A DNA stretch of 64,000 nt from Eukaryota sp. TZLM1-RC (lineage: Eukaryota > Protista > Metamonada: BaSk clade). The notes beneath the pieces were generated by a model, which had not been told where the DNA came from, searched no databases, and saw nothing but the letters and a program-made list of their open reading frames with translations. The translations under genes and the position numbers were made by a program. Position 1 is the first letter of the stretch, and the number at the start of each line of letters is the position of its first letter. This document shows positions 7,011 to 54,519 of the stretch, piece by piece. The DNA is taken from assembly GCA_040285825.1 (NCBI GenBank), contig JAUPSS010000006.1:372001-436000 (forward strand), written 5' to 3'.

Positions 7011-8015
7011 CAATTTAAATTTAAATCGAGTTATCGTATTTGATAAAATACGTTTATATATATAGTTATATATATACTACGTTAATTACTATTTTTTCAT
7101 AATAGCCCAATTAGCAAAAAAAGTTAATTAATATAATATTAATTATATTATTATTATTAATTATAAATAATATATATATATATAGTTATATATATTTATA
7201 CAACGTATAAATTACAACGTATATTTATTTATATTTAATAATAGCCCAATTTTTTGGCGCCCAAAATTTTAGGAATTTTAACAAAAAAAATTTAACAATA
7301 TAAACCTTAAATGTTTGTGTATTCGACAGTTCGATAGAACATCAATTGAAATTGTTTAGGCATCCTAGTACAATATCTACGTTAACTGTTCTATATCAAA
7401 ATCTTTCATTTTATAATTTGTTCTCTTTGATTTGAAATGATTTAGCTAGTGTTGAATTTTTCAATAGTTTTTATCATTAAATTCGTTCAACTTATGAGTC
7501 GGTTTACCATCCATAGTGGACATGATAGTTGAGTCTTTATCTACTAAGAGTCTGCTCAAAACCAACCTATCCAACAAGATTCATCTGTCAATTTAGATAA
7601 TATTGGGGATTCAACAATGTAGTTTATATACTTATCCCCTAGTATAATGTGTATGTAATGAGTATAATATAGTATAGTATAATGTGTAGTAGTATAATGT
7701 GATTAAATCTCTTCTCTCGTTACTCTGAACACATAAAATGTAACAATAACAATGAAACTGCTATGTGATGTTCAATGAAATTTTATTGTTGAATGTCTTA
7801 TTTTTTTCCGACTGACATTCCCAATGTCAAATGAAATGCCCCAAATGACATTCTTAATTCAATTTAATTTAATACCGTTCGCATGAATTTAAAACAAATG
7901 ACAAAAATGAAAAAGAAATAATACATTACCTATTCCTATTTTCCATGCCTCCTCAACATAAAAAAGTGCTCGTGCAGTTATTCCCCGTATGGTTTTAAGT
8001 GAAAATAATTATTAT

Positions 8016-8164
8016 TGTTAGTCTTGAATAGTATTTATAGTTTAATTACATAGTTTATTTAGTATTCCGCCTATTATTTTAAGAAGAGGGAATACAATTC
8101 CTCTTTGTAATAAATTTCCTTACATTTACTCTGTATGTCTGATACTAACCAGCCAAGACCATCA
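8016..8164 (+). mobile_element. Solo/orphan LTR (149 bp)
   Basis: tgttagtcttgaatagtatttatag...cagccaagaccatca, homologous to the 3' LTR at 11572-11725. Confidence 0.8.
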
Positions 8165-9239
8165 ATACGTATTGGGTCCTTAGAGGCTCAACACAGGATC
8201 CTTGAGGAAGAGACTGGTCCCTCTTCCTCTCAACTAACCGCAGACCAAGCTCCCGTGCTCACATCCATACTAGCTACCATACTACCTCTAATGTTCATCA
8301 CGGTGCTTCCCGTCAGCACAATCCTTATGCACGTTATAGGGATTCACAGGTCATTCCGAAGGACCCAGAAGCCATCCCTCCCACGGAGATGAGCAACAAA
8401 ATTGAGGAACCTTTGGGTGGTTCCAATGACACCTCCGAGACTGTTAGGACTGATCCTCCTACGTCTCACCTTTCGAGTTCTTCCTCCCGAACTCCTCAGT
8501 TAGGACCAGAACAACCCTTGACAACTGGGTCCGAGGGAAGCAATGCTTTTCCTCCTCCTGTGTCGACTCCTCCTTCCGGAGATTCTGTCACACAACCCAA
8601 TGTTTCAAGTTCTTCCTCCCAAACTCCTCAGTTGGGAACAGAATCACAAAATAATTCATCAAATAGAAACATACACTTACCCACTTGCTTCAAATGTCGT
8701 TGTGCTTTCAAAAACAGGCCAGTAAGGTACAGAGATGATCCATACATATGTGATACTTCCTTTGACTGTCAATAGCAAAGAAACGTATCAATTCTGATGA
8801 TACATTCATAAATGTAACAATTTAAACCTTAAATGTTTGTCATTGTACTGATTCTAGGTTAATTCCTTTTCACTATAAGGGAATCATTCCCAATAGACCA
8901 GAAGACAGTGTTCAATACCAACAATACACTATTGATACTCAAACAATCTGTAGGGCAGATATATCAACACCCCAGAGTTATTCCGTGCCCCAATTAGCAA
9001 CACCAAAAGTTAGACGAGCTTGCAAATTTCCTGGTTCTAGAAAACAATCAATGTCCATAATTAACGAAGAAGTACCAGTATCTCCAGATAATTGTGCAAC
9101 CCCTAATCCCACACCAAAAACTCCCACAGTTCAAGAGGATATTTTGCCCACCTGAAACCAATGTTCAAACTAATGGAGCGTTCAACTTGAAAGGTCAATT
9201 GTGAATTAAAGTCTAATTTCACTTTTCCTTCACTGCATG

Positions 9240-9705
9240 TCAGCACATCCATTATTACCTGATGATGGCCCAAGTGACACTAAAGACACAATGAAGAACA
9301 CGAGAATGTATGTTTGTTTTGTCTTACTAATATTAGAAATTACAGAAGGGAGATTTATAGACTTGCCGTATCACTAGCCATGGTGTTACGGGCCAAGTAC
9401 GCCCTCACAGGGAATTTGCGTGAACAAAATGCTCAGGTCCGGTTGACCATTGGCAACGGATACTGCATGCATCAAGAGGTGGTTAATATCATGGTATCAT
9501 CTCAAATAATTAACGATGAACATGTCGATTTGAAACCTTTTATAACTACTAGAACTGATGAAATCAATAGCTGTCTAAGATTATATCCAATTGAGTACCC
9601 TCTACCTAATCCACGGCTGCAGATTCGCCCTGTGTGTGCCAGAGCCAGAATTCCAAAGTATCACCCAAGCACTACTTTTGTTTTGCCACATACACCACAA
9701 GCGGT
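9240..9705 (+). pseudogene. Fragment of unnamed intron-containing family X
   Basis: Intron gtatgtttgttttgtcttactaatattag splits MKNTR-/NYRREIYRL. RPVCARARIPKY is shared with 38707-38982. Confidence 0.6.
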
Positions 9706-11571
9706 TTTGAAAACTACTTGAAAGGAAGGAAACTGGTTATATTCACAGACCATCAAAACCTTACCTACATGTTCACGGCTCCTGAGAAGAACAGAATTGT
9801 AACAAGATGGTTACCCATATTCTCTGAATTCTGCTTTGACTTGGTACATACCAAAGGGGAAGATAACTTCTGGGCTGATATGTTGTCTCGAATAGTTCCG
9901 CCTATAGACCATCAAGAGATCAATCATTTGTCCCATCAAATGCCTCCAAATTTTCATCCAATATTTTACATTGATAAAATTGATGGAACAGAAAATGAAA
10001 GATACTACATCGAAGACTTAAACAACTTCGAACGTATCATGGTCATCAGAGAACGATGTTCCAACAACCTGCCTATTTTCGAACCATGGCTCTGTAGGAT
10101 TAGGTCCGAGCAGAAGCTTGCCATAGCTTCCAAAGACCCCTCTTTCAACAACTGTGTTCATAACAATCATCTTGATTTATATATGACTCACGACAACAAG
10201 ATAGTGATTCCCAAATCACTCATTAAGGACACCCTTAACTTGTTGCATGGACTTCTGCAAGGAGGTCATCCAAGCAAAGCTGAAAGCCTGAACAAGCTCA
10301 GGAACAGCGATTATTGGTGGCCAAACATGCTCACCGACATGAATAAGCACGTCCAAGAATGCCCCTCCTGTCAGAAAACAAAGCCAGTTCCCAAACTGCA
10401 TGTTCCCCCAACCGGTTCATTGTGGGCTGACAGACCTTTTGCTCGCGTCAACGCCGACGTCATTGGTCCTCTTCCAGAAGATCAAGAAGGCTACAAATAC
10501 ATCCTCGTATTTATTGACAGCTTCTCTAGGTTCACGATCATCGTGCCTTTAAAAGAGATAAATGCCAATCTTACTGCAGATGCATTAATTTGGAAAGTCT
10601 GTGCCATCTTTGGTATTCCATTTCAAATCCACAGCGATAATGGACCCGAATTTTTCCAAGGCTGTCTTTGACGAATTAAGCAAATTTTTTTGGGCATAGA
10701 GGTGTCAAAGTCAATACCTAGGTTTTCTCCGTCCAACGGCCTGGTAGAGCGCCGACACAGAGACATCCTGCAAAACCTACGGAAATTGCTCGTAGACTTC
10801 AATGCCTACGATGTGTGGTCTGAATACTTGCCTTATGTGCAATTATTGATCAACTCTTCCAAGAGCTCAATAACCAACCACACCCCATACCAAGTGATCT
10901 TTGGCTCAGATGTGTCCCCCAGATCAGACCCTGGCAAAATTCTTGAAATCATTGAAAGCTCGACGTCTGAGTCATCTTTTATTCAAGAAATTCAATCTAA
11001 ATTTCGAAGATTGAAAGAGAAACAGGAAAAGGCAGCACACCATCAAGCTTCCAAAGCTTCCAAGCTAACTAGATCGTCAACTCCAAACCCTTTTGAAGTT
11101 GGTCAATTGGTATTGAGAGCATCTGGCTCTTCCGCTAAGCTTCATGGAGACTATTTAGGTCCCTTCCTAATTACTGAAATCGTATCCAACTCGTCTGTGA
11201 ATATTAAGAATCTCTGCACAGGTACGAGTGTCCAAGCTAGCGTCAAACATTTAGCACCCTGGCACTCCAGCTTGCCCACCAACGATGAGTTCCACTCCTG
11301 GGTCGCTGCTGGTGATGTCGAAGAACACATCATTGAAAAAGTGCTCAGTCAGGATGGTGACTTTTGCCAAGTGCAATGGCCTGGAAAAGAGATCACCACC
11401 GAACATGTGTCTACAGTCCAAAATACTGCCGCGTATAAAGACTTTATCAAGACTTCAAAAGCACGTCGCCGTACTAAATCCGCTCCTCCCAAGAAGCGTC
11501 ATATTTCCATTAGTTCACCTCCTGTGACTAGAGCTTCCAGGGCTCGTCGCTCGAAAGAGAGGAAAAGGCAG
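9706..11571 (+). mobile_element. Ty3/Gypsy pol 3' half: RNase H end, integrase (Zn-binding, DDE), chromodomain-like tail; frame break near 10660
   Basis: FTDHQNL...RW...HTKGEDNFWADMLSR; GHPS...CPSCQK; NADVIGPLP, DSFSRF, HSDNGPEF, SNGLVER; PPT at 11553-11571. Confidence 0.95.
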
Positions 11572-11725
11572 TGTTAGTCTTGAATAGTATTTATAGTTAA
11601 TAGTTTAGTTATCAGTATTCCGCCTGTTAGCTTAAGAAGAGAGAATACAATTCCTCTTCGTAATAAACTACACTTCTGTTATACTACACTGTATGAATTC
11701 TAACTCACAACAGCCAAGACCATCA
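11572..11725 (+). mobile_element. 3' LTR (154 bp)
   Basis: Starts with TG immediately after the PPT and ends catca. Confidence 0.85.
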
Positions 11726-11881
11726 CATGGAATGAGATAATAGTGTAGAATATAATATTCAAACCATGGAATGAGATAATAGTGTAGAATATAATATTCA
11801 AACCATGAAATGAGATAATAGTGTAGAATATAATATTCAAACCATGGAATGAGATAATAGTGTAGAATATAATATTCAAAC
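11726..11881. repeat. Minisatellite, 4 x 39 bp
   Basis: catggaatgagataatagtgtagaatataatattcaaac x4, no spacers. Confidence 0.95.
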
Positions 11882-13630: not shown

Positions 13631-13636
13631 GAATGA

Positions 13637-13885
13637 AGAGAGTTGGGTTGGCAAGGTTTCAGCGGATATCTTGAAAGGATTTCTGTAATGTTTACAGTTT
13701 TTGTGTTTCAAAATTCCGATCGATCGGGTTGACAAAAGGAATTAAATGTCATCCAATAGAGAATATAAATCCCAGACATCAGAACAAATGACAGAGAGTT
13801 GGGTTGGCAAGGTTTCACAGGATATCTACAGTTATTCTGTTTCAAACAGCATTTTTCCCATCGATCGGATTGACACAAAGATAAT
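13637..13885 (-). promoter_or_regulatory. Two copies of a conserved 'leader' motif with palindrome CCGATCGATCGG (13716-13727; degenerate in the second copy)
   Basis: Reverse complement matches 61691-61799 (tgtcaatccgatcgatcgg...gaaaccttgccaacccaactct). Regulatory role is inferred from its position 5' of ORF remnants. Confidence 0.5.
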
Positions 13886-13894
13886 TCTGAAGCT

Positions 13895-14290
13895 ATTGTT
13901 GACTTTGTCTCATGTAATGTTGCAAACGATACTTTGGTTCACAGAAGAAAACTTAATCCTGTGGCTGCTCTGGATTTTAAAGCAAAAGAGAAACATAGAA
14001 AATATGATAAAGATATTGAAGAGGCTAATGCTGATAAAAATACACAGCTGGTTTTTATTGCTTTCCCATTTTCGATAAATGGAAGATTATCAGTTGAAGC
14101 AGAAACTTTTTTGGATGACTTCCAAAAAATGGTGAAAGAAAAAACAATGAAAAGATTTGATATTTTTTTATGGCGTTCACGGATTCAATTTGCCATTATT
14201 AATAGATTACCGCGGTTTTTCAATCGAATTAGAGAAGCTTTAGCTAGACAGCAAGCAAATCAAGATTTTGTAGAGGAAATCTTGGTTTAA
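13895..14290 (+). mobile_element. Non-LTR retrotransposon 3' end, restriction-like endonuclease domain
   Basis: IVDFVSCNV...KAKEKHRKY...FIAFPFSINGRLSVEAETFL, followed by an (aata)n tail at ~14341. Confidence 0.8.
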
Positions 14291-14379
14291 TGATAGTCGT
14301 CCCATTAGTTATGATTTAATTTAATCAAGTGTGCAAATTCAATAAATAAATAATCCCCTAACAAAGCATTTAATCAAAT

Positions 14380-14640
14380 CAATAAAGTATGTAAACAACG
14401 GATATGTCGGCCGACACATCAGTCTGGGTTCGACTCCCATTGTGTGAGTTCAAATTTCGTTAAGGATCTTTAAAGGAAGATGAACAACGGAACTGGTGAA
14501 GCAGAAATAGCAGAAAAGAGTTTGAGAGAGTCTATGTGGGTAATGTATCCATTCAACAAAGTCCAAAAAAGGATGATAACCAGAAGGCACACCAACTCCA
14601 CTTTGCATAATATCAGCCGGAATAATGAATTTCACTATTG
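14380..14640 (-). pseudogene. Family C1 remnant with B-box (GGGTTCGACTCCC, 14426-14438)
   Basis: EWIHYPHRLS vs EWYQYSNRLS in the 5560-5796 copy; GSRTQTDVSAD. Confidence 0.55.
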
Positions 14641-15784: not shown

Positions 15785-16072
15785 CAGTGCGAATTGTGAA
15801 TGATTTTTCACATCTGTTACTGAGGGAGAGAGAGTAGCATTTTATGGATGAGTATGAATCCACCCCAATACAACTAAATCATGTTCTTTCAATCGTTTTA
15901 CATATTTTGGGGAAACATCTGTTGTTAATATTTTTTCGACAGGTGTCACAGAACCAGATTGTGGAGGAATGATCATGTGTGTGATTTGGTATGGATTTGC
16001 ATCACGTTTAACACATAATTAAGCAAGTCTTTCAATGTTACTCTCACATTGTTCTGGAAAATATATCATCAT
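15785..16072 (-). pseudogene. JAMM/MPN+ metalloprotease fragment, AMSH/STAMBP-like
   Basis: Manual translation: YQITHMIIPPQSGS...HDLVVLGWIHTHP*NATLSPSVTDVKNH; two in-frame TAA. Confidence 0.8.
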
Positions 16073-16199: not shown

Positions 16200-17095
16200 C
16201 TTCTTGAAACTAATTGTAATGGTGGTTGTTGATCAACTATTGAATATCTTCAAAAAACTGATTTGACTAGTATTGTTGGTTGTTTTCTAAATTTAGCAAA
16301 ATTTCTCATCGGATATTTAATCAACCATTGATAATGCTGATAATGCAGCTCCATTATCAATTTCGCCCTGTACTTTCACATTGTTTATTGAACAGTTCAA
16401 CCAAAGTTCCCCGTTAGAACTTGTTTAGTCTCCTGTCACCCTGAATAGTCTAGCACTGTGGATTGAACCGACAGGATTGGACGACTCTTTAAATCTTTTA
16501 ATGGATTGAGGTGTCTATAATTCGTATCAATTTTGCTCATTGTATAAATATTGTTGACTGAATTATGTGTAAGGTTATTATTAAAAGATGTATATTCATC
16601 TGATTTATTTGTACTACGTTTACTATTACGTTTATCTCCTCCCTCGCGCTTTTTTGAACCAGGTCTTCCCAACATTTTAAAACATTTTTCTTCAGGATGT
16701 TTGTTGGTTTTGCATAAGCTACACCTTTGCTCTGAAGATTTGGGTCGACCACTTCTAGAATTCTCTCTAGAACTTTGAAAAGGACCTTTTAACTGGTTTC
16801 GTCCTTATTGCGTGGGGGCGTGTTTGCCAAAAGCTGTTTTGATTATATTGAGGATTCAAGGCTATTGACCTTGTTTACAAATACATTTTCCAAATTGAAA
16901 ATATCATCACCAGTTTCTCATTACTCGTATCAAATTTATCAATCCAAATATTCATAAATATGTCCATCAATTGGCTGTTATTTTTATCGTTAATGGCCGT
17001 GCAGAATTTCATTAATTGACAATTTTGAGAGAAAAATAGTGGGTAACTTTTGGTATTTTTGAACGTTGTGATTCCGAGCATTAAAATTAATTGAT
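16200..17095 (-). mobile_element. Diverged copy of the Rep-exon/gag/protease chimera of 639-1560
   Basis: ORFs 16875..17081 and 16436..16675 match 647..859 and 59617..59871. Confidence 0.9.
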
Positions 17096-19031
17096 TGATT
17101 GATGAATTGATTGACGCTACTTGTTAACACACTTACAAACACTTGGAGGTAGTTTCAATCTCATGGAGTTTGGTCCTTCAGTTTAACAGGGTTGCTATCA
17201 GCACGGAAAGCACGCCGTCTATTTCCAGTTTCAAGAATCCTCTTCCAGTTATTTCGGCAACATGGATTTGGATCTGTGTTTTTCCACAGAATCCACAGGT
17301 TTCCACTTTCTTTGGAGGTCCAGTGAACTCTCTTAGTAGACACGGGTACACTGGTTTCATCGCTCACCGGCTGAATAGCAGTCCTTGTGGTTTTTGTTGG
17401 TTCAACACTGCTTTTAATTAGGCTAAAGCGAAAAGTACCTTAGTTTATATTATATAGCCTCAACTCAAATTATCCTCATCCTAACCCCCATTACATTGTA
17501 CATCTCCTCACTCACAGATAGCAAATATGCTTTTCAAAAACACTAGATTTCAAAATATAATACAAGATAATTACGTAATTTTAATACAAATAGAAACATA
17601 GGATATATAAATTTGACACATGTAAAAATTCAGTCGCCATCTTATGTTCAAAAACGTATTTTTATTGCGGTGGTATTACAAATGTGGAGAGACGAACACT
17701 AAATATTTGTAGGTAACGACTTATCCAACAAAACACTTTGCATAACATTGTACAAGAATTATGAAATAAAAAGACCTACAACTGATTTATGATATGTTTT
17801 GATGTGGAATTAAATTAGGTCTACTCATATTAAATAGAAATTGCTTAGATTGTTGAAACATAAATATATACCAATATTGCTTTATTTCACAAAAATGAAA
17901 AAGAAATAATTACTAAATCAAAACATAATACAATATCAACTACAAAAGTATCTAGTAAAGACATAGTTAAAAGCATAAATCTCAATAAATTGCCAATATA
18001 TATCCATGCTTCGTGAACGTAAAAACAGTGTTCTTGCTCTTGCACAAAAATGTACAACTTAGTGTTAAATTCTTCGGCTTCAACAGATTAAAGAAGTAAC
18101 AACCAATTTGATCTGCTGGCCACATAAAAAAGTCAGACAATCACAAAGATTTCCAAATCAAGAAAATTGATCTTCTTCTCCTCAGAATGAATTTTTAATT
18201 TCTATGATTTTAAAACAACCTTGATGAATGAAGGCTTCGATGGATGTTTCAGATGTTTTTGAGACCAAGCAGAGTACTGCATTTGAAAACAGAAGTTAAA
18301 TTTATACTTTCAAATAACATTTTGTTATAAAAATTTCCAATTAACTTATAGTTATTTTACACCATGTAACACAATAACAACAGCTTTAACATGTCAATTA
18401 TAATTCTTATAGTTATATAGTTCACCTGTCACTGACATGCTTTAAAGCCTGAACGCCTTGAAATGTAGTTATTTTTGTTCTTCAATCAGGATTTTTGGAA
18501 CACAGAAACTGTTAGAAAAATTGGAAAGAAAAAGGATTAATTAATGTTAAGTTTATTATAAAAAACTAAAAAATTTGTTGTATTTCTGAACACGAAACCT
18601 ATCAAAATTGAAAGAAAATATTGATTCCAATATATTGCAATATGGATCAATCAATTCAATTTATATTGATAATTCATTCACCAATTTAATTCAAATTGGT
18701 GGACCAAATTTCCAGTTCAAAATACTGCAATACAATAATGAGGAACCTTGGACACAACTGCTTAAACATTATAATGATGTTTTTGTCCCAAATACTGCTG
18801 TGAAAGACTTCTGGAAAAGATCTGGAATTCAGTCTTGGAATCTCGTGGTTTGAAATCACATTAGTGAAATTTATTTTTCTGGCTAATGTTATGCAAAATC
18901 GAAATGATGTGCCCCCTGGTGACTAGAATGGAGGACTAGAATGGGGTCAACCCAGTGCACCACCCAGTGGATCATCAATATTTGACCAAATTTTAAGGGA
19001 TGCAATAGCTGAATATGGCATTCCGAAACTA

Positions 19032-19964
19032 TTATTGATATTCACAGGTCTCACCGCGTGTCCCAGTAGCCCGCATGGGTAGAAGCATGGAGACCAACTG
19101 GGCAGTGGAGAGAGAGTGCCTTTTCATCACATCAGGGCAGTTATCTTCTAAAACAGATAAACTGTTCAACTCAGATTGAACGATTGTTGCCGCAGACTCC
19201 ATATTGATGGGAAATCGTTCGTTTCTTATTGAATTTTCTAACAAATTTTCACCACCACCAATATAGACGTTGGCTGTCATCTTGAGCCAATGGACCAAGA
19301 TATGCTGGTGTATTTCTTGATACCATTGTAAAATTGACTCATCTGGCTGAATCCCTTGAAGTACACAGTCGGCGTACTTCTTGGGCCAGGGGCAATTTAG
19401 AAACTGAGCACAGCTCTTGAAAAAATGGTGTTTCCAGACAACAGGGCCGTCAGCAAGCAACTGACAAAAGGCTTCTCGCAGTTGGATGGCTCGACTGCCA
19501 AGAAGAGTGGAAAGACACCAAAATCTACCACCGTCGGCTGAGGTGGTTTCATTCAGCCGTCGCCAGGGCCAAAAGCGCTGAACAAGGTGTTGCAGCACTT
19601 GGTAAACCACAAAATGGTTCTCAAATGGTCTTCTTTGTTTGGGCTCACTATGGCACACAAAGTCGAAACAGAGGCTCCAGAACTGGCTTTGAGTAAGCCA
19701 CATTGAGTGTTCTGGGTATTGGAGCACAAATAGTCGTGCTAGGTGAGTAGCATGAGCTCCAATACTAGCAAGAACTTGGAACTGGCGTTCCATAGCTTCT
19801 TGTGCCTCTGAGTCGAAAAACTGGTTGACAGACGCTCCCACAGTTGTAGTTTGTAGAACGTTATCCATGGCAGTCAACACAGAACGGAAACAGTCAGAAA
19901 TGATTGAAAATTTGTTTCCTAAAATTGAAAATTTGTTGAAGTCAATCAATCTTATAGTTGTCAA
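19032..19964 (-). CDS. Hypothetical protein, longest unassigned open ORF (ATG probably ~19869)
   Basis: 310 codons open with visibly higher GC than the flanks; no motif recognised. Confidence 0.55.
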   Translation of the reverse strand: MTTIRLIDFNKFSILGNKFSIISDCFRSVLTAMDNVLQTTTVGASVNQFFDSEAQEAMERQFQVLASIGAHATHLARLFVLQYPEHSMWLTQSQFWSLCFDFVCHSEPKQRRPFENHFVVYQVLQHLVQRFWPWRRLNETTSADGGRFWCLSTLLGSRAIQLREAFCQLLADGPVVWKHHFFKSCAQFLNCPWPKKYADCVLQGIQPDESILQWYQEIHQHILVHWLKMTANVYIGGGENLLENSIRNERFPINMESAATIVQSELNSLSVLEDNCPDVMKRHSLSTAQLVSMLLPMRATGTRGETCEYQ

Positions 19965-20404
19965 TTCAAAATAAAGTTAGCTACAAGTGTTTATTAATGA
20001 TACATATCGTTTAAGATTACTTTCTGAATATTTTCCTTTCTTCAGACAAGAACTACATGTTACAAAAGTTGGTGAGTGGAGTTTGGTTGGGTTGTCATCA
20101 TTCCCCAGATTCGTAATTGAATTTCATTTCATCACTTACAACATTTCATCACTTACTCTACTACGAACCTTCTCCCTACAAATAACACTATGGTCACGTC
20201 TTCTGACACCACAAATCTCAGATTATGTCGGCCGTTGGGTCGGAGATTTTCAAACACAAGTACTACTATAGATGGGGTCAACCGAGTGGACCAGTATGGG
20301 GTCGACCCTTTGAACCGACACCATTTCCCGAACTTGATGGATATGTAAGGGATGCAATAGCTCAATATAATATTCTAAAAGTACAATAGATCTTTACAAA
20401 AATA

Positions 20405-20540
20405 CAGTTGTGAGCCACGATTTCTTGAAAAAGTATCTTTCTTATGTTAAATCTTGTTTCAACCCTCACCTAAACCCTGAAGCTGCTAAACATGCAATTC
20501 ATTCTTACTGTGAATTAAGATCTAAATTCGAGGGTCTAGG
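20405..20540 (+). pseudogene. MCM helicase AAA+ lid fragment
   Basis: DFLKKYLSYVKSCFNPHLNPEAAKHAIHSYCELRS fits the MCM L(R/K)KYI.YA+...P.L..EA...I...Y..LR pattern. Confidence 0.7.
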
Positions 20541-20770
20541 AATGAAGAGTCTCACCCATTTGCTGTACCAATATCTCCAAAATCCTTGGAGGAGTTGAAA
20601 AGGATTGCATAATGGAAGGTGAATTAGAGGTGACTCAGGTGGGATATACACATTAAAAAAGTTTAATTGCTGGAACAGTACTGTGGTTTGCAAATTTCGC
20701 GGATTTCGACCAAAATCATTTCCCACACAATAAATTCCCACACAAATTTCTTCATCTTGCTTTAGTGGTT

Positions 20771-20950: not shown

Positions 20951-20964
20951 AGAAAATTTTCAAG

Positions 20965-22335: not shown

Positions 22336-22339
22336 CCGA

Positions 22340-36332: not shown

Positions 36333-36351
36333 TCAACCACCTGCAACACCT

Positions 36352-41269: not shown

Positions 41270-42030
41270 GACCGCTTTTTGTTTCATTAAATATCATTGA
41301 ACCTCAAAACTTGCTTTACAACTCTATGTTTACGTTCTACAAGTCCATTACTTTCAGAGTAGTGGGGTATTGAGTTACTTGTCTCAATAGCTAATCTGTT
41401 GCACACTATCATAAAAGTCTCATTGGCGAACTCAGAACCATTGTCACTATGAATTAACATAGGTATGCCAAAAATTGCGCAAAAGTTCCAAATTAAAGCG
41501 TCTGCGGTCTCTAAGGCATTGAGCTTTTTTAGAGGGACTAAAATTGAATATCCAATAAAAGTATCTACAAATACTAATAAGTTTTTATTACCATCGCTAT
41601 CAGTATTCAGAGGTCCAATTGTATCGACATTTAATCTAGCGAAAGGACGACCTGCCCAAAGGGAACCTGTGGAAGGTGTTTTTGTTCTTTTGACTGGTGC
41701 CGTTTTTTGACAAGTTGGGCATCTTTTGATATGGATTAAGAGGTCCTTTCAAATATTAGGCCAGAAAAAATCGCTTTTAGACAGTTCATGTAGACCTTTG
41801 TGTTTGCTGGGGTGGCCAGATTGAATTAATCCATGTATTAATAGTAAAGCCTGTTTCCTGAGGCCTTTTGGAATCAAAATTGTTTTGCTATTTTTCCAAA
41901 TTTGAGTATTTTCATCTAAAATTGCATTCTCAAATAGAGAGTCATTGTTATTTATGGCTATTTGTTGTTCAGATCTTATTTTAGAGAACCAACAAGAAAA
42001 TATAGGTAAGTCCTGGTGTCTACTTAAGGA
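41270..42030 (-). mobile_element. Second Ty3/Gypsy integrase fragment (different subfamily)
   Basis: Minus strand: GHPS...FWPNI*...CPTCQK...GSLWAGRPFARLNVDTIGPL...HSDNGSEF...SNGLVERK. Confidence 0.9.
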
Positions 42031-42121
42031 TGAGATTGATGGAATTTCTTCGAAGTATGAATCAGAATCATCATCTACTGATACTGATACTGTTTAAAAT
42101 TAAATCGAAGATAATCTCTAC

Positions 42122-42590
42122 TGTTTGACAATGATTCAATATTATTCTCAATATTCTCAACAAGATTACAGAAATGAAACCAATCTCTACAAAATTAAAT
42201 TGTTTGACAATGATTCAATATTATTCTCAGTATTCTCAACAAGATTACAGAAATGAAACCAATCTCTACAAAATTAAATTGTTTGACAATGATTCAATAT
42301 TATTCTCAATATTCTCAACAAGATTACAGAAATGAAACCAATCTCTACAAAATTAAATTGTTTGACAATGATTCAATATTATTCTCAGTATTCTCAACAA
42401 GATTACAGAAATGAAACCAATCTCTACAAAATTAAATTGTTTGACAATGATTCAATATTATTCTCAATATTCTCACTCAAGCTTACAGAAATGAAACCAA
42501 TCTCTACAAGATTAAACTGTTTGACAATGATTCAATATTATTCTCAATATTCTCAACAAGCTTACAGAAATGAAACCAATCTCTACAAAA
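42122..42590. repeat. Tandem repeat, ~6 x 79 bp
   Basis: tgtttgacaatgattcaatattattctc... recurs at 42122, 42201, 42280, 42359, 42438 and 42518. Confidence 0.95.
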
Positions 42591-44378
42591 TGTCTTATTG
42601 TCAACATGTGTAGTAGTGTTTTTCAAATCCAAGACTACTTAATGGTAGATTATAGATATCAAAGACACAACTAATTTGTATGATTTAAATCAAAACATAG
42701 TTTATTAATACATTAAATAACTATTTCACAACAGTTGTGAGAAACATAAAAACAAGGTATGAAGTTTATTACTAAATTAAAGTGATGCTTTACAAAATAC
42801 AACAAAAGAAAAACAAAAACTAACAAATGGCAAATAGTAATTGTCAAATTCATCCAACTTGTGGGTACAGAATACTGTGTTGGTGTGTCAGGAGCCTGTT
42901 TTGGGAATTATAGGTCAGGAGATGAAGGAATAGAGTAAAGTCGAGGGGACAGCTGTCTGTGTGCTTTTGAAGGAGAGTCAGTTGCTGTGTTAGGAAAAGT
43001 GAGATTTGGAAAGAAATGACTCCATACAAGACTCAGAAGGTCTGATTTGCGTCTAAAGTGTGACTTGGGGTATGAAAGTTGTGTTCTCTTCAGAAGATTC
43101 TGCGGTTGTGACACCGTTGAAAAGAGGAGATCATTTGGTGTCAGGTTGTCAAGGTTGTCAAGGTTGTCAAGAGTCATTGCAGAAAGAAACTACCAAATGA
43201 GTGTGAGCAGGACACAAACAATTGAGGTTGTTCATCTCTTTTCCTTTCCTTATTACAATGTCCAGGAGACCTAACACCAAAAATCTCTCAAGGACTCGCA
43301 CCCCTCTTTTCCAGCTTCTGGCTCACACAGCAGCCAATAATTCTGATGAAGATTTTCTGCTTGGTGTACGACTAAGCAATGGTATGATTCATCTCAACTT
43401 ACTTCAGGGAATATTTATCGGATCGGGTATTCTGACGGTCATGAGACCAATGATTTAGAGGAGCTCACAAGATTCATTTTTTTCAATGATATGAGCGTAA
43501 CAGATGTTCTTAATACCTGGAAAGAACCTATATGTCCTTCTGATTGGTTTCAGTGCTGTTCGTGATTACTCATGAGACGATGACTCTTAATAGCGTTCTT
43601 CATCTCCTTCTGATCCGAACTCACCATTTCATAAAACATCAACCTATACAATGTTATAACATGTCAATGTTGTTACATTCAACATTCTTGATCAGTTAAC
43701 GTGTCAACTATCTGTGTTATACCTAAATTATCTTAAAAATTGGAAAGAAAGTAGACAAGATGACCGTCATGATTTTGAATGGTGGTCACCATTTCAAGAG
43801 TCAGTCTTTGTTGAGAGTGACGCTACACACCTATATGACCTACCAAAAAATTCTGAAGTTCAATCGGAAAATTCTGGTAAATCAAATAATTCTGGTAAAA
43901 AGCAACAAGAAATTTGGAACAAAGAACACATAAGGAAAAACGAAGAGCTCGCCGTGAAGCCAAAACCAAATCACGCAATTGTACTGTTGTACATTTGAAC
44001 ATGAACAACCTTAAAGAACTATTGGATTATCTCCCTTCCAAAAGAGATAAAATAATGGTTCTGATGGGAGGTCACATGACATGCTATTGCTCGGAGTTCA
44101 TCTCCATCTATGTATCACCGACATGCTCCAACTTCGAGTATCCAGAGTATATTGCCATCAAAAAAGCAGTACTCATGATAAGGGCTTTATTGGCCATTGG
44201 TGGCTGATGAAAGTTAGTGGCAATGGCGAATCTGTATTCATCACAATTTTTAACTCCCTTTGTGACGATGATAATTACGATGAAAAATATTTTTATATTG
44301 AAAATTATATTAAACTATTCTTTTGCCATTTATTGATGATTTTATTCATCAACGAACATGAAAACATAAAATACACAG

Positions 44379-45616
44379 TTAAAACTCCACGTCCTCAAAA
44401 CCTGCCTCTTTTACTTCAAAACAATTAATTGCCAAAGATTCAGAAAATTTCCCAAAAGAAGACAGTGAATCAAAAATCAGTTTTACCATTCCCTTAAAAA
44501 CAGAAAATACAATCCTGTTTTGCCAGTAAACACGATTGAAAATTCTTCCAGTTCTTTCCTTTACAACTGCATTAAAATCTTCAAGGAAAGCCATAGCAGC
44601 CTTACCCAAAGATCCAAGCAAAGAAAATACAAAGGGACATAAATTATATTGGGCATGAGAATTTTCATTAATCGAGGAAATGGGTTTCGCATATTTAGCA
44701 ATTTTATATTTTTCGCCTGCAAGAAGAGGATTATTTACATCTGAGTTAATGAGATGTTCGTTAGAGGCATTACAAGGGTCAATAGACATGGCGTCTAAAA
44801 TAGTAAAACTACCATTTAAACCGGGAACAACTAGATCAGCTCTTGTCAGACCCATAGAAGCTCTGTTGTAACGCGTACTATCAATATTGGGATCATCAAG
44901 AATTAATTTTGATAACAGCGGTTCTAAAAAGGAATCTACTCGATATGATTTGCACATTACATAAATTTGGTCCCTGACGTTATTATGCACTTTGCTTCTA
45001 AATGTAATAAAATGTTTACAGTTCAAAAGATGAGTAAACAAAAGAGGTTTACTACATTTACAAGTTAAATGATTGGGCAAATTGTTTGGCCACAGAAAAC
45101 AACGAAAACGCATGTTTAAAAGCCATTCATTGTTTATTAACAAAAGTCCATATACAGAGGGAATTTGAGTTACTAACGCAGCAGCAGAGCTATCACGAAT
45201 ATCCTTTAAAAAATTACCGAAAGCGGGATTTTTAGTTTTGGCCAAGCCATGTCTTACTTCACCTAAATCAAAAAGACTAAGAACCAATTACTTTAATTGG
45301 TATTCTAAGAACAAAAAACATGACTTCGAATTAAAGATTCATTTACCTCCAATAATGAGGAAAAAAATTTGGCCCGAAGTTTGTTGAAAGATCTACAAAA
45401 ATCAAAAGACACTGAAGGAGGAGTTGATCTTAAAATATGAGTGAATTTAGCAGAATAACAAATTTTTAAAATAAAAAATTTGATGTGCTTTTCAATATCA
45501 AATTCAGCAATAAAACTAAGATCCTTATCAAAATTTTCCAATAAATTGTTCAATTGAGAATAAATTTCATCCAAATTACCTAACCAACATCCAAGATGGT
45601 CCAAGGTTTTCACCAA
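44379..45616 (-). mobile_element. RLE-type (CRE/R2-like) non-LTR retrotransposon 3' part: RT end, Zn finger, restriction-like endonuclease
   Basis: DHLGCWLG; CKCSKPLLFTHLLNC; HNNVRD; RADL; EKYKIAKY; PFVFSLLGSLG. Internal deletion or frame break near 45300. Confidence 0.9.
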
Positions 45617-46218
45617 TAACAGTCAACCTGAGACAATTTTTGGCTGTTATTAACCGATTTAAAAATCTATTCCAACTCCACAGCAAGCCTTTCTACGAGA
45701 ATGATATTGTACCTTTGCTTCCTGATGATACTTCCTCGATTTTTCATACCCTTTCCGTCTCCTCGATCTTTCATACCCTTTCAACCTTCTTCCTGCTTCT
45801 TCTACTGATAGTTCTCCACGTACTTGTTGTCATTGTTGTTCTCAAGATTCTACTTCTCACGTTCCTGTTACTATCATCAAGAACTATCAAGTGAATGCAA
45901 ATGTGACCAATATGTACAATAGTGTTTTTATCACTTGCAAGGATGAAGATTTACCAACTGGCTCCTTTGCATTCAATCTCCGAGACTGTGACTATAAATA
46001 TTTAAAATTCGAAAGAACCGACACAAAGACCAAGTTTTTTCGCTCTTTAAACAAATGTTTAGTGCACGAAAAGCAACACAGACGCTGCATGATAACTGGA
46101 ATCGTCGGCCCTTTCCATATGAAGCTCAAGATTTTGTGAAGAAATTCAATCTCAACTAGACGAGATGGAAGGAGAAAACGACACAACTGAGGGATCAGAA
46201 ATCAAATCACTACTCAAA

Positions 46219-46656
46219 GTTACGGAAATTTTTGAAAATTTGACAACCTTTTAATCTCTTGGTCAAAACTGAAACAATAATACCATGACAAAAACTTTTA
46301 TTGTTATTGTTACAAGACTTTTGCTAGTTGAGACAGATCTTAATGTTTAATTTAGCTCTGCTCATATTAAATAAAAATTGCATTGCTCAGACTGTTGAAA
46401 CATAAATAAATACCAATATTGATTTATAACACAATACTGAAAAAGAAATAATTACTCAAAAGTATCTAGTAAAGACATAGTTAAAAGCATAAATCTCAAA
46501 ACATTACCTATTTCTATTCATATCATTACAACCAAACACTTCATAAACTACTAATATTCTTGAATCCAATTTATTTTTATCTTTTCACACCAATTTAAAC
46601 GTAAATAACTGAGTAATTTTCAACGAGAGGAGAGAGAAGAGTCGGCATCATCAACA
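46219..46656 (+). repeat. ~435-bp dispersed repeat (partner of 24446-24879)
   Basis: Reverse-complement match. Confidence 0.9.
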
Positions 46657-47279
46657 CGAAATAATTTATTTTCACAAACCCCCATCGGAAATACTACTTT
46701 TATTGTTTCAACTGACAAAGTACTGCATATGTTTTTTATTTTAATAAGATTTTCATCTTGGTTATTTTTATCACCATTTTCTAGTTCTGCTGCTTCCCTC
46801 AATTATTTTGACGATTGTTGGTTGAACTCCAAACATTGAGGAAGTTCCTTATTGGACATATAAATTCCACTAACTAAACCTCTAACAGCAGTACTACTGA
46901 GGTTCAGTAAGTGGTTTGTTATACCGCAATCGGGTTCTCTGCCTACAGAACACTGTGAGATATCCATGTTGGGTGTGTTACTTTGTGATAATGATGTTAC
47001 TTTCTGTTGTTTTTTGTTGTCATTGTTTGTGTCTTTATTTAGGTTTACGTGTTATCGGTTTAATAGTGATCACCCTTGTTGTTTCAATCTGCTGAAGCAT
47101 TGGCAAGGTGTTTATGAACTTAATGAAACTAATGAAATTGAGATTTAACTATGTTCTTACTAGATACTTTTGTAGTTGATATTGTATTCTGTTTTGATTT
47201 TGTAAATTAACCTTAGTTTTAACAGACTCAACCGGAGCTTCATCTGTTTTAGTTGAAGAAGTGTTGAGTATTCCAGCGA

Positions 47280-47430
47280 TGCCAAGGATCCAATGCGCCA
47301 CACCAGAAAGTATGTTTATTGTGTATAACTAATATCAGCAATTACAGAAGAGAAATGTATCGTCTAACAACCTCACTGAGCATTTTTTTTAAGTTATTGG
47401 ATCCAGATGCGTTTATTTGTTATGCGAACG
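47280..47430 (+). pseudogene. Family X fragment with intron
   Basis: Near match to 22195-22335. Confidence 0.65.
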
Positions 47431-48749
47431 ATGTTGGCGCCTTTAGGCTTTTATAATATGAATAGAAAATAAATCAGTTATCTTAACCACACTTTTCCAA
47501 TTTACGGCATCACCGAACCTATAGAAAACCTTCCTTCTCCTTCTGCTATTCTTTCTTCCTGATCTTTAATCGACTCATCAAATCTGTCTGCTACTGCTTT
47601 TCCTCCAGGTATGTGTACACTTTCTGGTGATCCTAAGGCTAACCAATCCTGTTCTTCTCTCAGTTGTTTTTCTATTTCTTGTTTCTTTTTTTCATCTAAT
47701 TCAAACTTTTTCTTGATTTCTGTCCCTGCTTGAGACATATGTTTCATTTCTTTTTTCAGATCTTTTGGTAATTGTGCTTGTCCAATGGCACTTTCTTCTT
47801 GTAATTGTTGTTCGTCTTCTGCAGGTTCCATTGCTTGTACATCTCCTTCTAAATGTGGTAGTACACTTGCTGATAAGTGTTTCTTAATTGGAAAGTATAT
47901 TAGAAGCTGATGGGTTGGGTAATATTCCCGAGTCTGATTTGGAAAATAAAATAAAACAAAATACAAACATTACAATGGAAGAAATTCGTAATTTTTCTGA
48001 TAATCTTGCCATGGAAATTAGAACAGCATCAGTTGTAATGAATAGAATTAGAATTGACACTTTACATTCTGATGGTTCAGATATTAAAATTAATCAGGAA
48101 ATTAAATCATTTACAGAGATGGTTCAACAAGCAATTGCAAATACATCAACAGAAATGTCAACTGATTTTAAAGGATATTTGGAAAGTTTACAAGATGTTG
48201 AATCAAAAAATAAATTGAGTTCAACTGGACTGTATTTTTGGTGGTTAATGGATGATTATTTTATTATTATTATAATGTTATTATTATGTTAATGTTGAAT
48301 ACATTATGTTTGCAATGGATTTAAAATACATTATTTTCTGCATAGTAAATGATACGTGACTTTATTATAAGAGTTTCAATTATTATTATGAAATCTGTTG
48401 CTAATGATCATGATTTGTTTGATGATGATCATAGAATTGCAAAATATAGTTCAAGTGTTCATGATGATGATGATAAAATTAGTTTTAATGTTGGAGATGA
48501 ATATGTTCGTGGATTTATTAATTATGACATTACAATTCCCAATATTATTACATCCAAATTTGATGCGTTTCAATATTGTTTTGATACAATATAGAAAGAG
48601 AGAACAACAAATCATAAAAAAATACGTTAATTGTGATTTTTTCTGTAATGTCCAAAATCGAGAAATATTTATTTGTGACATTTCCATTGTTCGAAATGAT
48701 GCATTTAAAAAAAATCATTTATCTATTAATCTAAACATATTTTCAACTT

Positions 48750-49020
48750 TCATATCATTTGAACAATGACTTAAATTTAAATGATTTAATTCAATTGCAA
48801 ATTTAGCAAAATCATCATCATTTCTCAATCTTTCTGAACAAAATTCAAAATTTTCAGGCATTTTTTTAATTGCAAATTTAGCAAAATCTTTATTATCTCT
48901 CAATCTTTCTGAACAAAATTCAAAATTTTCAGGTAATACTTCAATTGCAATTTTAGCAAAATCTTTATTATCTCTCAATCTTTCCGATAACCATTCAAAT
49001 GCATAACCATCTTTTTCAAT
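48750..49020 (-). pseudogene. DUF4116-like repeat protein fragment
   Basis: Repeated FEFCSERLRDNKDFAK(I/F)AI units of 25 aa. Confidence 0.7.
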
Positions 49021-49032
49021 CTTTATTTCAAA

Positions 49033-49683: not shown

Positions 49684-49730
49684 AATAAATCATCTTTATC
49701 TTAATTCCACTTTTCCAACCTACGGCATCA

Positions 49731-51760
49731 ACAAGACAGGTCTCTTGTTTCTTCATGGGAAAATTCTTTAGTGCCTTATAGAAATTCATTCAATCTTTTT
49801 CTCAATGCTTGGCTGCAGTGTCAGAAACGTAATTTTATCAATAGAAAGGGCTTTCTCCTTACCTTGCTTGTCGGGCTCGTCAATTAGCGTCTAACGTGAA
49901 GACAAGTCTACCTAAAATTTGTCAATCCTGGACAAAAAATTTTATTCGTGGTCATTGTAGAGCTCTAGATAAAACAAATGTTTCTGCCAATTATCCTCTC
50001 TCTCTTGCCAGATGAACCATTAGCCCAACCCGAAGAAGTAGTTGCTGATTCTGTTCTCAAACACTACATCAATTTCAATCGGAATAATTCAAGAGAAAGA
50101 TTCTTTTTATTAAATGCATGTAAATTTATCTTGAATATCCTTCAAAGATTTCCTGTAGGAAAGTGGCACTTTTTAAAAAATCATCTTCTGAAATCTCCTA
50201 CGCTGCTGTGGATAAAGTGAATATATTTCAAACCCGCAAACTGTTTCCGCTGTTGTGCTATAAGGGAACTAGTATCAAAATTATGGTTGCTGTTTCAACT
50301 TGGCTGAAAAAAAATTAAATTTTCAAAAATCAGATCTGATCAGAAGACACGTCTTTTGTATGAGTTAGATGCTGACTTTGTCCGTAAATAAATATTGTTG
50401 TATGTTTATATTGTGTTTCAGTTGTCCTTTTTCGCAGATATCGCACATACCCTCAACACCAAACTCCTGCTCCTACTGAACTAGTTTCGTCCCATCGTCC
50501 ACGTCGACGTTACCGAAAACATATGTATGTTTTTTCTGTTTATTTATTTCAGTCCACTTGTTGATCATGCCGCCAATAGATCCTTCAACCATGTGGTGCG
50601 CTATTTTCAAAAAGCCCTTGCTGAAGATAAATGTGAGTACAAATGTTTCACCTTTCTTAAAGGTTTGATTTCTGATGCTAAGACCAGGAGATAATCATGA
50701 ATTGATTCGTTCTGTTCTTCATGATTATGAAGGCAAAGCCAAACATCTTGAAAAACAAAGCCAAGTTACTAGGCCAAGCCGAGGTCAATAGCAAGTTTGA
50801 TACCATTGGTTATTTGGTTTTGGACAATATGATTTTCCGATTGGTTTCAAGAGGGCTTTCCGGAAAAAGCATCTGTATGTCTCTGGTCCTTCCTCCATCG
50901 TTGAAACAACCATCATTAGATTACTGAAAAAAGTATGTTTTTTACTGAAAACTAACCCTAGGCTGGACTCAAAGTCTATATGGCTCCCGATGCTGGGAAA
51001 TTCGAAGACTTTGAGAATTTTCGATACGACGTCTGCATTGCTGATGAACCAAATAGAATTGGAACACAGCAAATCTCTCATTGGATGGCCTGGCTTGACG
51101 GAGGGTATGTAATTTTTTATTACTAATCACAGTTGCATGAATGTCAATGCGAGATATCACAATGTCGCGAAAACCCAAAATCTAACAACAATTTTTCTTT
51201 CAAACCTCTGAATGAATTGGTTTTGGGTATGTTTATTTTTATTTTATTAATTCTAGATACAGTGGACGAAGAACAGAAAAACAACATGTGTATTGGTTGT
51301 TGAATCTGCTCTAAATCCAGTGGAAGTACTACATGATGATGGTATGTATATTTTTACTGTTTAACCTTAGGATCAAGAATTGTGCACAACTATCACAGCT
51401 CCAAGGCAGGAATTCCTGTAATGTTGGCCATTTGGAAGCCCATTGTTCAAGAGCAGGTAGCCAAGGACTACAAAAACATCAACAGTATTCGCCCAGTTGT
51501 ATGTAAAACTCAGCCTACTCACCACAAATTCGTATAAGATATTTTCGATGCCGTCGAGTCAAGAGAGCAGGTGATACTGAATGGCAGATATGTATCTCTG
51601 GCCAATCTCAATTGTGCTTTACATCTCTCCATGAGGATGTAGCACAAGATATATTCGAGGTTGGTCAGCGACTCTCTGATTGGACTCCTCAACTCGAACA
51701 GTCTCCTCAACAACAATCAGCTGCTCCTGTTACACAGAATCAGAACTCCTCCTAACCCTG
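49731..51760 (+). mobile_element. Multi-intron CRESS-like Rep pseudogene (N-terminal extension, possible HUH motif I, SF3 helicase, C-terminal domain)
   Basis: FLLNACKFIL(x)YP at 50101-50141 with a 1-nt loss; HLYVSGPSSIVETT (Walker A, GK>VE); YDVCIADEP; WLDGG-CMNVNARY; TIFLSN. Introns at 50933-50961, 51105-51132, 51227-51256 and 51342-51370. Confidence 0.75.
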
Positions 51761-51771
51761 GGATGGGATAT

Positions 51772-53180
51772 TCATCTCATTTTACCAATTTCTTCATCTT
51801 TTATGTTGGAAAATAATGTTGGAAAAATCAATGTGTTCCAATCACTGTGGTCTTGAATATGTATAGTCGAATAAGCTAAAAAACAATGTTGATAATGTTT
51901 AAAGTGTGTGAATGTGAGTGTAATGTGTAGATTTTCATTATCATTGACCATAATCCCTATCATTTTGCATAACTTCAAAATAAGCTATGGAACTGTAAAA
52001 CCTATTAATTATGTGTGTATTGTATAAGCTCTTGCAAGTATAAAATGGTATATAAAAGTTTGTAATATCTGATAGAGAATTTGAAATTTTATTTCAAAGT
52101 TTCACATTTTTCAAAAAGTAATACAACTCTTTCATAAATCTTTGTTAATTGCTACAAACAAATTTTATGTGTTGGTTTTAACATTGTCAATTTATTGATA
52201 TCATCATTACGTAATGTGATATTTTTGTTACCTCATGTTACTAATTTCTTCATCTTTTATGTTGCAAAATAATGTTGGAAAAATCAATGTGTTCCAATCA
52301 CTGTGGTCTTGAATATGTATAGTCGAATAAGCTAAAAAACAATGCTGATAATGTTTAAAGTGTGTGAATGTGAGTGTAATGTGTAGATTTTCATTATCAT
52401 TGACCATAATCCCTATCATTTTGCATAACTTCAAAATAAACTATGGAACTGTAAAACCTTTTAATTATGTGTATATTTTATAAGCTCTTGCAAGTATAAA
52501 ATGGTATATAAGAGTTTGTAATATTTGATAGAGAATTTGAAATTTTATTTCAAAATTTCACATTTTTCAAAAAGTAATACAACTCTTTCATAAATCTTTG
52601 TTAATTGCTACAAACAAATTTTATGTGTTGTTTTTAACATTGTCAATTTATTGATATCATCATTACGTAATGTGATATTTTTGTTATCTCATTTTACCAA
52701 TTTCTTCATCTTTTATGTTGGAAAATAATGTTGGAAAAATCAATGTGTTCCAATCACTGTGGTCTTGAATATGTATAGTCGAATAAGCTAAAAAACAATG
52801 TTGATAATATTTAAAGTGTGTGAATGTGAGTGTAATGTGTAGATTTTCATTATCATTGACCATAATCCCTATCATTTTGCATAACTTCAAAATAAACTAT
52901 GGAACTGTAAAACCTTTTAATTATGTGTATATTTTATAAGCTCTTGCAAGTATAAAATGGTATATAAGAGTTTGTAATATTTGATAGAGAATTTGAAATT
53001 TTATTTCAAAATTTCACATTTTTCAAAAAGTAATACAACTCTTTCATAAATCTTTGTTAATTGCTACAAACAAATTTTATGTGTTGTTTTTAACATTGTC
53101 AATTTATTGATATCATCATTACGTAATGTGATATTTTTGTTATCTCATTTTACCAATTTCTTCATCTTTTATGTTAGAAA
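51772..53180 (+). repeat. Tandem array, ~3 x 456 bp
   Basis: Near-identical short ORFs at 51772, 52228 and 52684 give a period of 456. Confidence 0.95.
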
Positions 53181-54519
53181 GCTCAATCAAATGAACCTTA
53201 TCAATCACGTAGGGGTAAAATGTACCCATTAGATTAAAAAATATTTGTAGTTATTTCTTCTTTTCCTTTAGAAAGCAATCCTTATCTTCAAGGAGAGCTT
53301 AATCATTTATTCAAACAAATATATAATGCGCCTGATTTGCCAAACAATAAGGACCAATTTTTGGCTGTTGTTAACCGATTCAAAAAAATGTTGTTGACTT
53401 GAACGATATAAACCAATGCCTAACACTTTTGCAAGTCAAATCACAGTGATATTGTTGTGAATGTTTTTTATGGTCCACTATAATTATTAGTTAATTTGAG
53501 AATTTTATAACAATATCTTATTTATAAAAATAAATTTAATTTCTTCGCACAATTTTTTTATTCAGTAATGACATAAACTTACCCACTTGCACCAATTGCG
53601 GTTGTGTTTTCAGATACAGGCCATTAAAGTAAGCTGACTGATTGTGACTATAAGACCAAGTTTTAAAATTCTTTTAGTCAGTTATTATATACTTGAGTTC
53701 TGTTCTAAGATTTGAAGTATAAGTAAACATAATTATTTAATTACTTTTGGGCATAGTCGTGAGTAAAAAACTGTTCACAATACGTTTTTGGTCAATTTTA
53801 AGTACAAGGTAATTTTGTAAAACTTCCACACATATATTCTACTGATGTCTTTTGATGCCATTTCTACTCCAGCTTCTCCTGATGACTTGCAAACACCTGA
53901 CGTAAGTCATGTTTGTAAACAGCTTGATTTCTCATCAACTTGTGCAACACAACCAACTACCAATACAGCACAACACACCACAACACACCACAAACAACCC
54001 GAGCTTTCGCTTACATCAATCATGAATAGTTTGAATGTTCCTGTCAGTAGCGCTCAGTGACCGAGTATATCTCTCGACGAGCTAATGATCTTATTACAGA
54101 TCTTAGAACTTCAATTCGTGAGTCAAGAAAAAGAGTTTCGTCGGTAGCATTTATGCCACCATCTGTGGAAGAGCAGATCATGAAAGCAGACAATGTTGAA
54201 GATCCACATAGTACAGAATAGTTGTGGTTTTCGGTAATACTTTTATACTAATTTTCGGTAATACTAATATAACTAATAATCTTTATTCCAATTGTGACAA
54301 TAAACACGCATTTTCTAGATATGGGGACTGATACTGTTTTCCATTTTTATAGCCTGCATGATCTAGGATACCTCTGCAATTCAGTTTCTTATGGTGTTTT
54401 GATATAAAATACAGAATTTCAATCTGATTAAACTACTTTGCGCTCTTACTGTTTTTCTGAATATCGCAAAAAATGTCTCGATTGGATTTTGTTCTGGACA
54501 ATATGGAGGTAGTATGTAT

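Follow-up and report, generated by a model that had tools for sequence, protein, structure and literature searches.

Origin of a gene-free mosaic of short element and host-gene scraps in Eukaryota sp. TZLM1-RC

How does a stretch of eukaryotic DNA come to consist of dozens of short pieces from unrelated elements and genes? The question is raised by 64 kb of contig JAUPSS010000006.1 of the free-living anaerobic protist Eukaryota sp. TZLM1-RC (positions 372,001 to 436,000 of the forward strand; hereafter the window, whose own numbering is used throughout), in which an original prediction had seen a dense patchwork of captured mobile-element, viral, and host fragments between 7300 and 54500. The window, in which no intact gene was found, is made of short, mostly same-strand scraps of the genome's own multicopy elements and of a few host genes, and the mosaic is a genuine, somewhat unusual feature. 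Our leading explanation, to which we assign a probability of about 45%, is that templated copying during the repair of DNA breaks put the pieces together and that whole blocks were then recopied.

Make-up of the mosaic

Pieces were mapped by running Pfam on 403 stop-free open reading frames (ORFs) of at least 50 aa and by comparing the window with itself. The resulting list, assembled by hand, holds 42 oriented pieces between 7300 and 54500; families to which no polarity could be assigned, among them the 225-bp D4 repeat and a 434-bp block, were excluded. Median piece length is 258 bp (range, 51 to 2,027 bp), and 37 of the 42 are no longer than 1 kb, in keeping with the predicted abundance of short unrelated pieces; ends are base-exact in four pieces only and approximate in most. 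Pfam recognized Ty3 RNase H and integrase, tyrosine recombinase, and zinc knuckle domains, helix-turn-helix and DDE domains of IS630/Tc1-type transposases in five places, and host-type scraps (MCM lid, JAB, NIF, RCC1, and DUF4116), while the self-comparison revealed diverged pieces of unnamed multicopy families (X and W, four pieces each; R, three pieces; V, L, and Z). Neither an intact host gene (by Pfam and ORFs) nor an intact mobile element was found in the 64 kb, whose longest ORF measures 353 aa, and the window gave no Rfam or ARAGORN matches and no TTAGGG runs. Viral content amounted to a single phage-integrase-like scrap plus a weak P-loop family.

The predicted limits of the mosaic did not hold. 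In the interval from 7300 to 54500, 53% of the DNA has a paralogous copy at another place in the window, and the share is alike in the flanks (59% of positions 1 to 6449 and 61% of positions 60933 to 64000). Other loci also gave chimeric proteins: in P0073 a Ty3 integrase tail leads into family R, in P0074 family R follows an unrelated N-terminus (these two probably come from the same organism), and P0067 joins two subfamilies lacking long terminal repeats (non-LTR), all three being gene models in which false splices are possible. With flanks equally dense and chimeras elsewhere, the proviso that all intergenic DNA might look the same is borne out in part, and the mosaic is probably a general trait of repeat-rich domains in this genome and not one bounded element.

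Joins and the copying of fragments

At 35872 to 37474, several segments from the interior of donors, truncated at either end, stand in a row. In order, they are a minus-strand non-LTR piece (35872 to 36282), a 51-bp internal non-LTR piece on the plus strand (36283 to 36333), a 632-bp plus-strand transposase piece that runs from about codon 3 to the start of the DDE domain (36334 to 36965), and a plus-strand NIF-phosphatase-like fragment (36966 to 37474; paralog at 34149 to 34280). At a threshold of 98%, parent contigs depart from the window at 36283, 36333, and 36965. The 51-bp and 632-bp pieces adjoin, are at least 98% identical to their parents, and are in frame with each other, and the protein collection contains the chimera as P0062. 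For 36200 to 37474, a non-LTR endonuclease, a transposase, and an unknown segment had been predicted to follow each other directly; the first passage stands, the unknown segment is NIF-like, and the restriction-like endonuclease (RLE) label draws on sequence motifs, since the long non-LTR ORF has no match in Pfam or PDB.

A passage from family X to Ty3 had been placed near 9705, and a parent contig puts it at 9699: this contig matches 9699 to 10374 with 5 differences in 676 nt and carries other sequence upstream exactly from 9699. Here an X piece (9270 to 9698, +) meets the 3' half of Ty3 pol, with the RNase H end, the integrase, and the 3' long terminal repeat (LTR), cut at its 5' end (9699 to 11725, +); another parent contig differs from this Ty3 piece at 7 positions in 845 nt. 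The passage from X to a tyrosine recombinase near 22335 was likewise confirmed, as homology to X (22180 to 22348, +) stops between 22340 and 22348 and residues 48 to 124 of the ORF at 22194 match a PHROG integrase (E = 4e-12). The recombinase piece (22350 to 22565, +) is C-terminal, shares about 43% identity with phage integrases of Firmicutes, and has no match among viral contigs; it could conceivably derive from one gene together with X. In the proposed series of MCM, transposase, and Rep, the MCM AAA-lid fragment (20405 to 20530, +; host type, Pfam E = 3e-5) and the N-terminal piece of an IS630/Tc1-type transposase (20729 to 20961, +) are both present, but about 200 bp separate them, and the Rep label found no support.

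Read support comes from three DNA runs of one sample, in the form of contigs; these runs are possibly the window's own source and thus test the assembly rather than independent occurrence. What we say of contigs holds among the matches listed, which at 98% are 16 of 42 pieces and, in the parent-contig comparison, 24 of 650. Among them, short-read contigs with zero differences and depths of 2.5 to 4 span 20295 to 20459, 20465 to 20704, and 23222 to 23406, each crossing one join and extending more than 31 letters to either side of it, so that both flanks of the MCM fragment are bridged. A contig at 20146 to 20220 was not counted because it has only 30 letters on one side of the join at 20175, where a parent contig leaves the 314-aa ORF of family M (19035 to 20175, -). 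That the joins are chimeras of long-read assembly, as the original prediction had allowed, would be compatible with the thin coverage of unique DNA and with the joins at 9699, 22348, 36283, 36333, and 36965, for which the matches listed include no bridging contig. Since at least three joins are crossed by error-free contigs and diverged block copies share their joins, we regard such an artefact as exceedingly improbable. The parent contigs are far deeper (17 to 37 for Ty3, and several hundred in the bin at the non-LTR end near 14000), which suggests multicopy donors elsewhere, depth not being a copy number. Relative to them, changes in the window are not clearly enriched for C-to-T among the matches listed.

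Direct or inverted words of at least 8 nt flank none of the 42 pieces, most of whose ends are approximate, against 0.9% and 3% at random, which agrees with the predicted absence of target-site duplications (TSDs) and terminal inverted repeats (TIRs) at the junctions. No TIRs were found around the two near-complete transposases, one of IS630/Tc1 type with a single frameshift (28957 to 30050, +) and one broken and of another subfamily (31408 to 32482, +). Similarity between the LTRs at 8016 and 11573 is just 77.5%, each being from a separate subfamily. No element was found split into two matching halves, the Ty3 and transposase pieces being of different subfamilies. The junctions thus do not resolve into ordinary nested insertions with TSDs.

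An intron motif matched 10 times between 7300 and 54500, whereas 100 shuffles gave a mean of 1.2 matches and never more than 5; six matches in the interval start with GTATGT, all of them on the plus strand in families X, W, and V. Retained introns lie at 9308 to 9336 and 22218 to 22246 in X, within the piece at 26353 to 26676 in W, and at 50933 to 50961 and 51105 to 51132 in V. These short introns agree with what we take to be the metamonad consensus. Their retention had been predicted correctly, but they occur in unnamed multicopy families and not in recognized host genes. Kept introns argue against spliced-mRNA templates and, with the young pieces that are cut at both ends and lack TSDs and TIRs, they uphold joining at the DNA level.

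Slow decay is a poor explanation for adjoining pieces that are truncated at both ends and differ from their parents by at most 2%; such pieces call either for the copying of fragments or for deletions that far outpace substitution. In the latter case, the window would be a transposon graveyard, in which whole insertions into a gene-free region are trimmed by very frequent kilobase deletions and the joins are deletion joints. Natural 3' ends are indeed kept by non-LTR pieces at 13880 to 14348, 44355 to 45622, and 35211 to 35328; Ty3 fragments occur on 12 different contigs of TZLM1-RC, the mosaic is equally dense outside the interval, and divergence, as a measure of piece age, ranges from about 1% to about 14% among the matches listed. 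A graveyard accounts poorly for the lack of any intact element in 64 kb, for adjoining pieces of at least 98% identity with both sides cut, the shortest of 51 bp, and for the host-gene scraps, the strand bias, and the missing TSDs. We therefore favor the copying of fragments and consider a deletion-trimmed graveyard unlikely, if still a serious competitor.

If repair-associated copying is correct, breaks in the domain would have been patched by alternative end joining (alt-EJ) or by break-induced replication (BIR) with template switching, and this patching would have copied 50 to 2,000 bp at a time from abundant donors. Ordinary 5'-truncated non-LTR insertions would have been added on top, and assembled blocks, including inverted arms of 6.4 kb, would afterwards have been duplicated. 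According to the relevant sections of PMC11724301, insertions of multiple templated fragments, of genomic and transposon DNA, arise at breaks through nonhomologous end joining (NHEJ), alt-EJ, and microhomology-mediated BIR (MMBIR); sections of PMC8516963 describe the surveyed metamonads as lacking NHEJ and keeping alt-EJ and homologous recombination (HR) or BIR to varying degrees. The break insertions of yeast dna2, rad27, and RPA mutants, as presented in parts of PMC11724301, resemble the window in combining transposon and genomic fragments of multiple loci without TSDs. They are rare and hold few fragments, whereas the window holds dozens over tens of kilobases, with a strand bias and duplicated blocks.

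Several points weigh against this explanation. Break repair predicts no strand bias and leaves the one observed unexplained (29 of 42 pieces, or 24 of 31 in a post hoc subset). At none of the joins were both donors identified, and an allele with an empty site was not observed. Joins of the same type would also result from serial large deletions. The 42 pieces assign just 37% of the interval. Finally, the best-documented route of capture in yeast requires NHEJ, which is reportedly absent from the metamonad lineage, as far as the cited sections of both papers go.

Strand bias and duplicated blocks

The original prediction had put roughly two thirds of the pieces on the plus strand. This holds for the whole list (29 of 42; p = 0.02) but not with significance for the Pfam-labelled pieces (9 of 14; p = 0.42). 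Mobile pieces other than long interspersed nuclear elements (LINEs), taken together with the multicopy pieces, lie on the plus strand in 24 of 31 cases (p = 0.003, from a post hoc split); the fraction is 2 of 5 for non-LTR pieces and 3 of 6 for host-type pieces. Orientation does not cluster along the interval, with 18 runs against 18.9 expected.

A bias spread along the interval instead of in blocks, with many families sampled as short pieces, fits a silencing archive akin to a unistrand cluster of PIWI-interacting RNAs (piRNAs), where transcription would run along the minus strand and selection would hold pieces of invaders antisense. Parts of PMC7845603 report PIWI-like proteins and 34-nt repeat-matching small RNAs in Trichomonas, and parts of PMC10643416 define flamenco-like clusters by transposable element (TE) remnants on one strand. 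The bias is nevertheless modest (69%) and nonsignificant where Pfam supplies the labels, non-LTR pieces lie on the plus strand in just 2 of 5 cases, the mosaic reaches into the duplicated flanks and other loci, and the Trichomonas small RNAs map to both strands. We consider a cluster of this kind quite unlikely. Short pieces of active transposons and other mobile elements might have been copied mostly one way into a dedicated gene-free domain that would template antisense silencing RNAs, for which we see a small chance. In the sections cited, the flamenco and flam-like clusters of Drosophila (PMC10643416) and the clusters of Aedes rich in endogenous viral elements (10.1101/127498) are, as the window appears to be, gene-free and filled with TE remnants biased toward one strand. 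Transcription and piRNAs have been shown for these insect clusters; the window has a weaker bias, keeps introns, and contains DNA-transposon pieces. The viral pieces of Aedes derive from RNA viruses via LTR retrotransposons (10.1101/127498, in the part concerned).

The interval is the spacer, about 50 kb long, between inverted duplicate arms that each measure 6.4 kb or more and have their inner ends inside a tandem repeat. The left arm (1 to 6449, +) is itself a mosaic and runs off the start of the window; it contains P-loop family V, gag/protease, Ty3 integrase with an LTR, repeat D4, and a 456-bp repeat. The right arm (54513 to 60932, -) is 98% identical to it overall and about 99.5% identical in most 500-bp bins, the divergence being concentrated in three bins at 94 to 97%. 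This patchy identity suggests conversion or further copies elsewhere. The composite of V and gag/protease in the arms was recopied at 16204 to 17095 (-; 90 to 92% identical to both arms) with its join intact, and 24446 to 24879 and 50768 to 51562 were also recopied, inverted.

Some further features accompany these blocks. The 434-bp block at 24446 to 24879 has its inverted copy at 46219 to 46656 (95%) and older relatives at 17810 to 18007. Block ends carry the 456-bp unit, in tandem at 6039 to 7016 (+, 2.1 copies) and 51774 to 53180 (+, 3.1 copies) and again at 54513 to 54911, with arrays ending at a similar phase of the unit. An AT-rich imperfect palindrome (7152 to 7243) lies just inside the left arm, and a DDE transposase piece (54316 to 54512, -) abuts the inner end of the right arm.

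Rolling-circle cargo had been the other origin proposed, namely a nonautonomous Helitron-like element that captured pieces serially and recopied them. Co-orientation, kept introns, the absence of TSDs and TIRs, recopied composite blocks, and short arrays of the 456-bp unit at block ends would all suit it, and Helitron capture also yields gene-fragment chimeras that are built up in sequence and lack TSDs and TIRs (sections of PMC4289320 and PMC4224331). The 5'-TC and hairpin-CTRR-3' ends and the Rep/helicase (RepHel) that parts of PMC4289320 describe were not found in the window: Pfam detected no RepHel domain in the 403 ORFs, and a strict scan for hairpin plus CTRR plus T (perfect stem of 7 to 10 bp, 6 to 16 nt before the motif) gave no site on the plus strand and one on the minus strand, inside a left-arm ORF and not at a piece end. 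The 19 block ends inspected share no terminal motif, and the supposed Rep piece is unsupported. Within the window, the proposal therefore failed, and it is improbable in our view.

Fungal centromeres can have a gene-free, element-rich core flanked by a long inverted repeat. A regional centromere or heterochromatic landmark here, made of gene-free truncated elements, a short satellite, and a long inverted repeat, would be compatible with assembly by repair. It would match the lack of an intact host gene, the 353-aa limit on ORFs, the 456-bp arrays, and the arms of at least 6.4 kb at about 99% identity. Related TE fragments are, however, scattered over contigs of TZLM1-RC and do not form one block, the arrays are just two to three units long, and our literature search found no protist anchor for the idea, which we hold to be rather improbable.

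Further pieces and their implications

Besides the pieces named above, family X occurs at 38656 to 38904 and 47275 to 47440 and has no match in Pfam, PHROGs, the Atlas, or longer proteins. Family W is found at 22925 to 23240 (+), 40467 to 40620, and 50523 to 50700, the last closely followed by a P-loop-like V piece (50768 to 51217, +); W and V might together form a single gene belonging to a mobile or viral element. Other V pieces lie at 339 to 723, 16814 to 17095, and 63551 to 63939, and one V exon matches AAA_16 at E = 0.01. A single 10-residue match of a V exon to a viral contig was dismissed.

Family R (20962 to 21193, +; also 23739 to 24080 and 49723 to 50160) is the segment that had been called Rep. 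Seven relatives were found; those consisting of R only belong to no Pfam family, and their profile has no PDB match. The top Atlas score was 0.82, to unrelated clusters, none of 591 pattern matches was an R locus in metagenomes, and the fold model was unusable, with a predicted local distance difference test score (pLDDT) of 30. An HUH Rep at 20962 to 21193 is unsupported by Pfam, PDB, and the Atlas, and a Fanzor-like origin, a tentative lead, gained no support from the PDB profile search.

Ty3 is also represented by a 5' LTR of about 150 bp with the start of a gag-like ORF (8016 to 8660, +) and by an integrase piece of a third subfamily (41293 to 42054, -). A gag-type zinc knuckle piece lies at 39245 to 39486 (+; Pfam). 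Arrays of 39 bp in four copies (11726 to 11881) and of 79 bp in 5.9 copies (42122 to 42591) directly adjoin Ty3 pieces and are possibly slippage products at joins. For the Ty3 ORF at 9610 to 10668, 60 homologs were retrieved, 59 of them from isolates TZLM1-RC, TZLM3-RCL, and GEM-RC1; the best five are from TZLM1-RC (85 to 98% identity). We take these isolates to belong to the metamonad Skoliomonas group, from the isolate names in the genome preprint. Eleven of the 59 contain segments of at least 25 aa that the others lack. Two such segments look like ordinary reverse transcriptase, judging by their motifs, and the rest may be false tails of gene models, which makes them weak support for chimerism.

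Among the non-LTR pieces, 13880 to 14348 (+) is the 5'-truncated 3' end of a very abundant element, assigned by us from sequence motifs and homolog P0067, and 44355 to 45622 (-) is a 5'-truncated element that keeps its 3' end and has a short sister piece at 35211 to 35328. Although their subfamilies differ, the two near-complete transposases each change frame next to a run of A (29382 and 31851), at nearly the same codon, which is either programmed frameshifting or homopolymer error. Host-type and related scraps recognized by Pfam include a JAB/MPN protease (15845 to 16018, -), an RCC1 repeat (38950 to 39195, -), and a DUF4116 repeat (48718 to 49010, -). The D4 repeat (about 225 bp) has six copies, 84 to 91% alike, at 5061, 12663, 27591, 38298, 55660, and 62872; they share a 3' end, have ragged 5' ends and no TIR or TSD, and the four left of the right arm are co-oriented. 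Weakly related pieces at 14369 to 14449 and 28391 to 28465 contain a word resembling a tRNA B box, and ARAGORN and Rfam gave nothing for them.

In the literature searched, no description of the transposons of this genome was found, and the main text of the genome preprint (10.1101/2023.05.03.539051), tables and supplements aside, does not contain the word "transposable." If the mosaic was indeed assembled by repair-associated copying, a lineage reportedly without NHEJ would routinely build DNA by copying fragments. The window would then be a natural, heritable record of complex templated insertions, which have mostly been studied in repair mutants and tumors, and such assembly would generate chimeric genes that are in frame, while also inflating the number of genes counted. 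Should the strand bias reflect selection, this would point to a unistrand silencing locus outside animals, and an archive of invaders would amount to a memory like that of piRNA clusters, made by fragment capture rather than by the trapping of whole elements.

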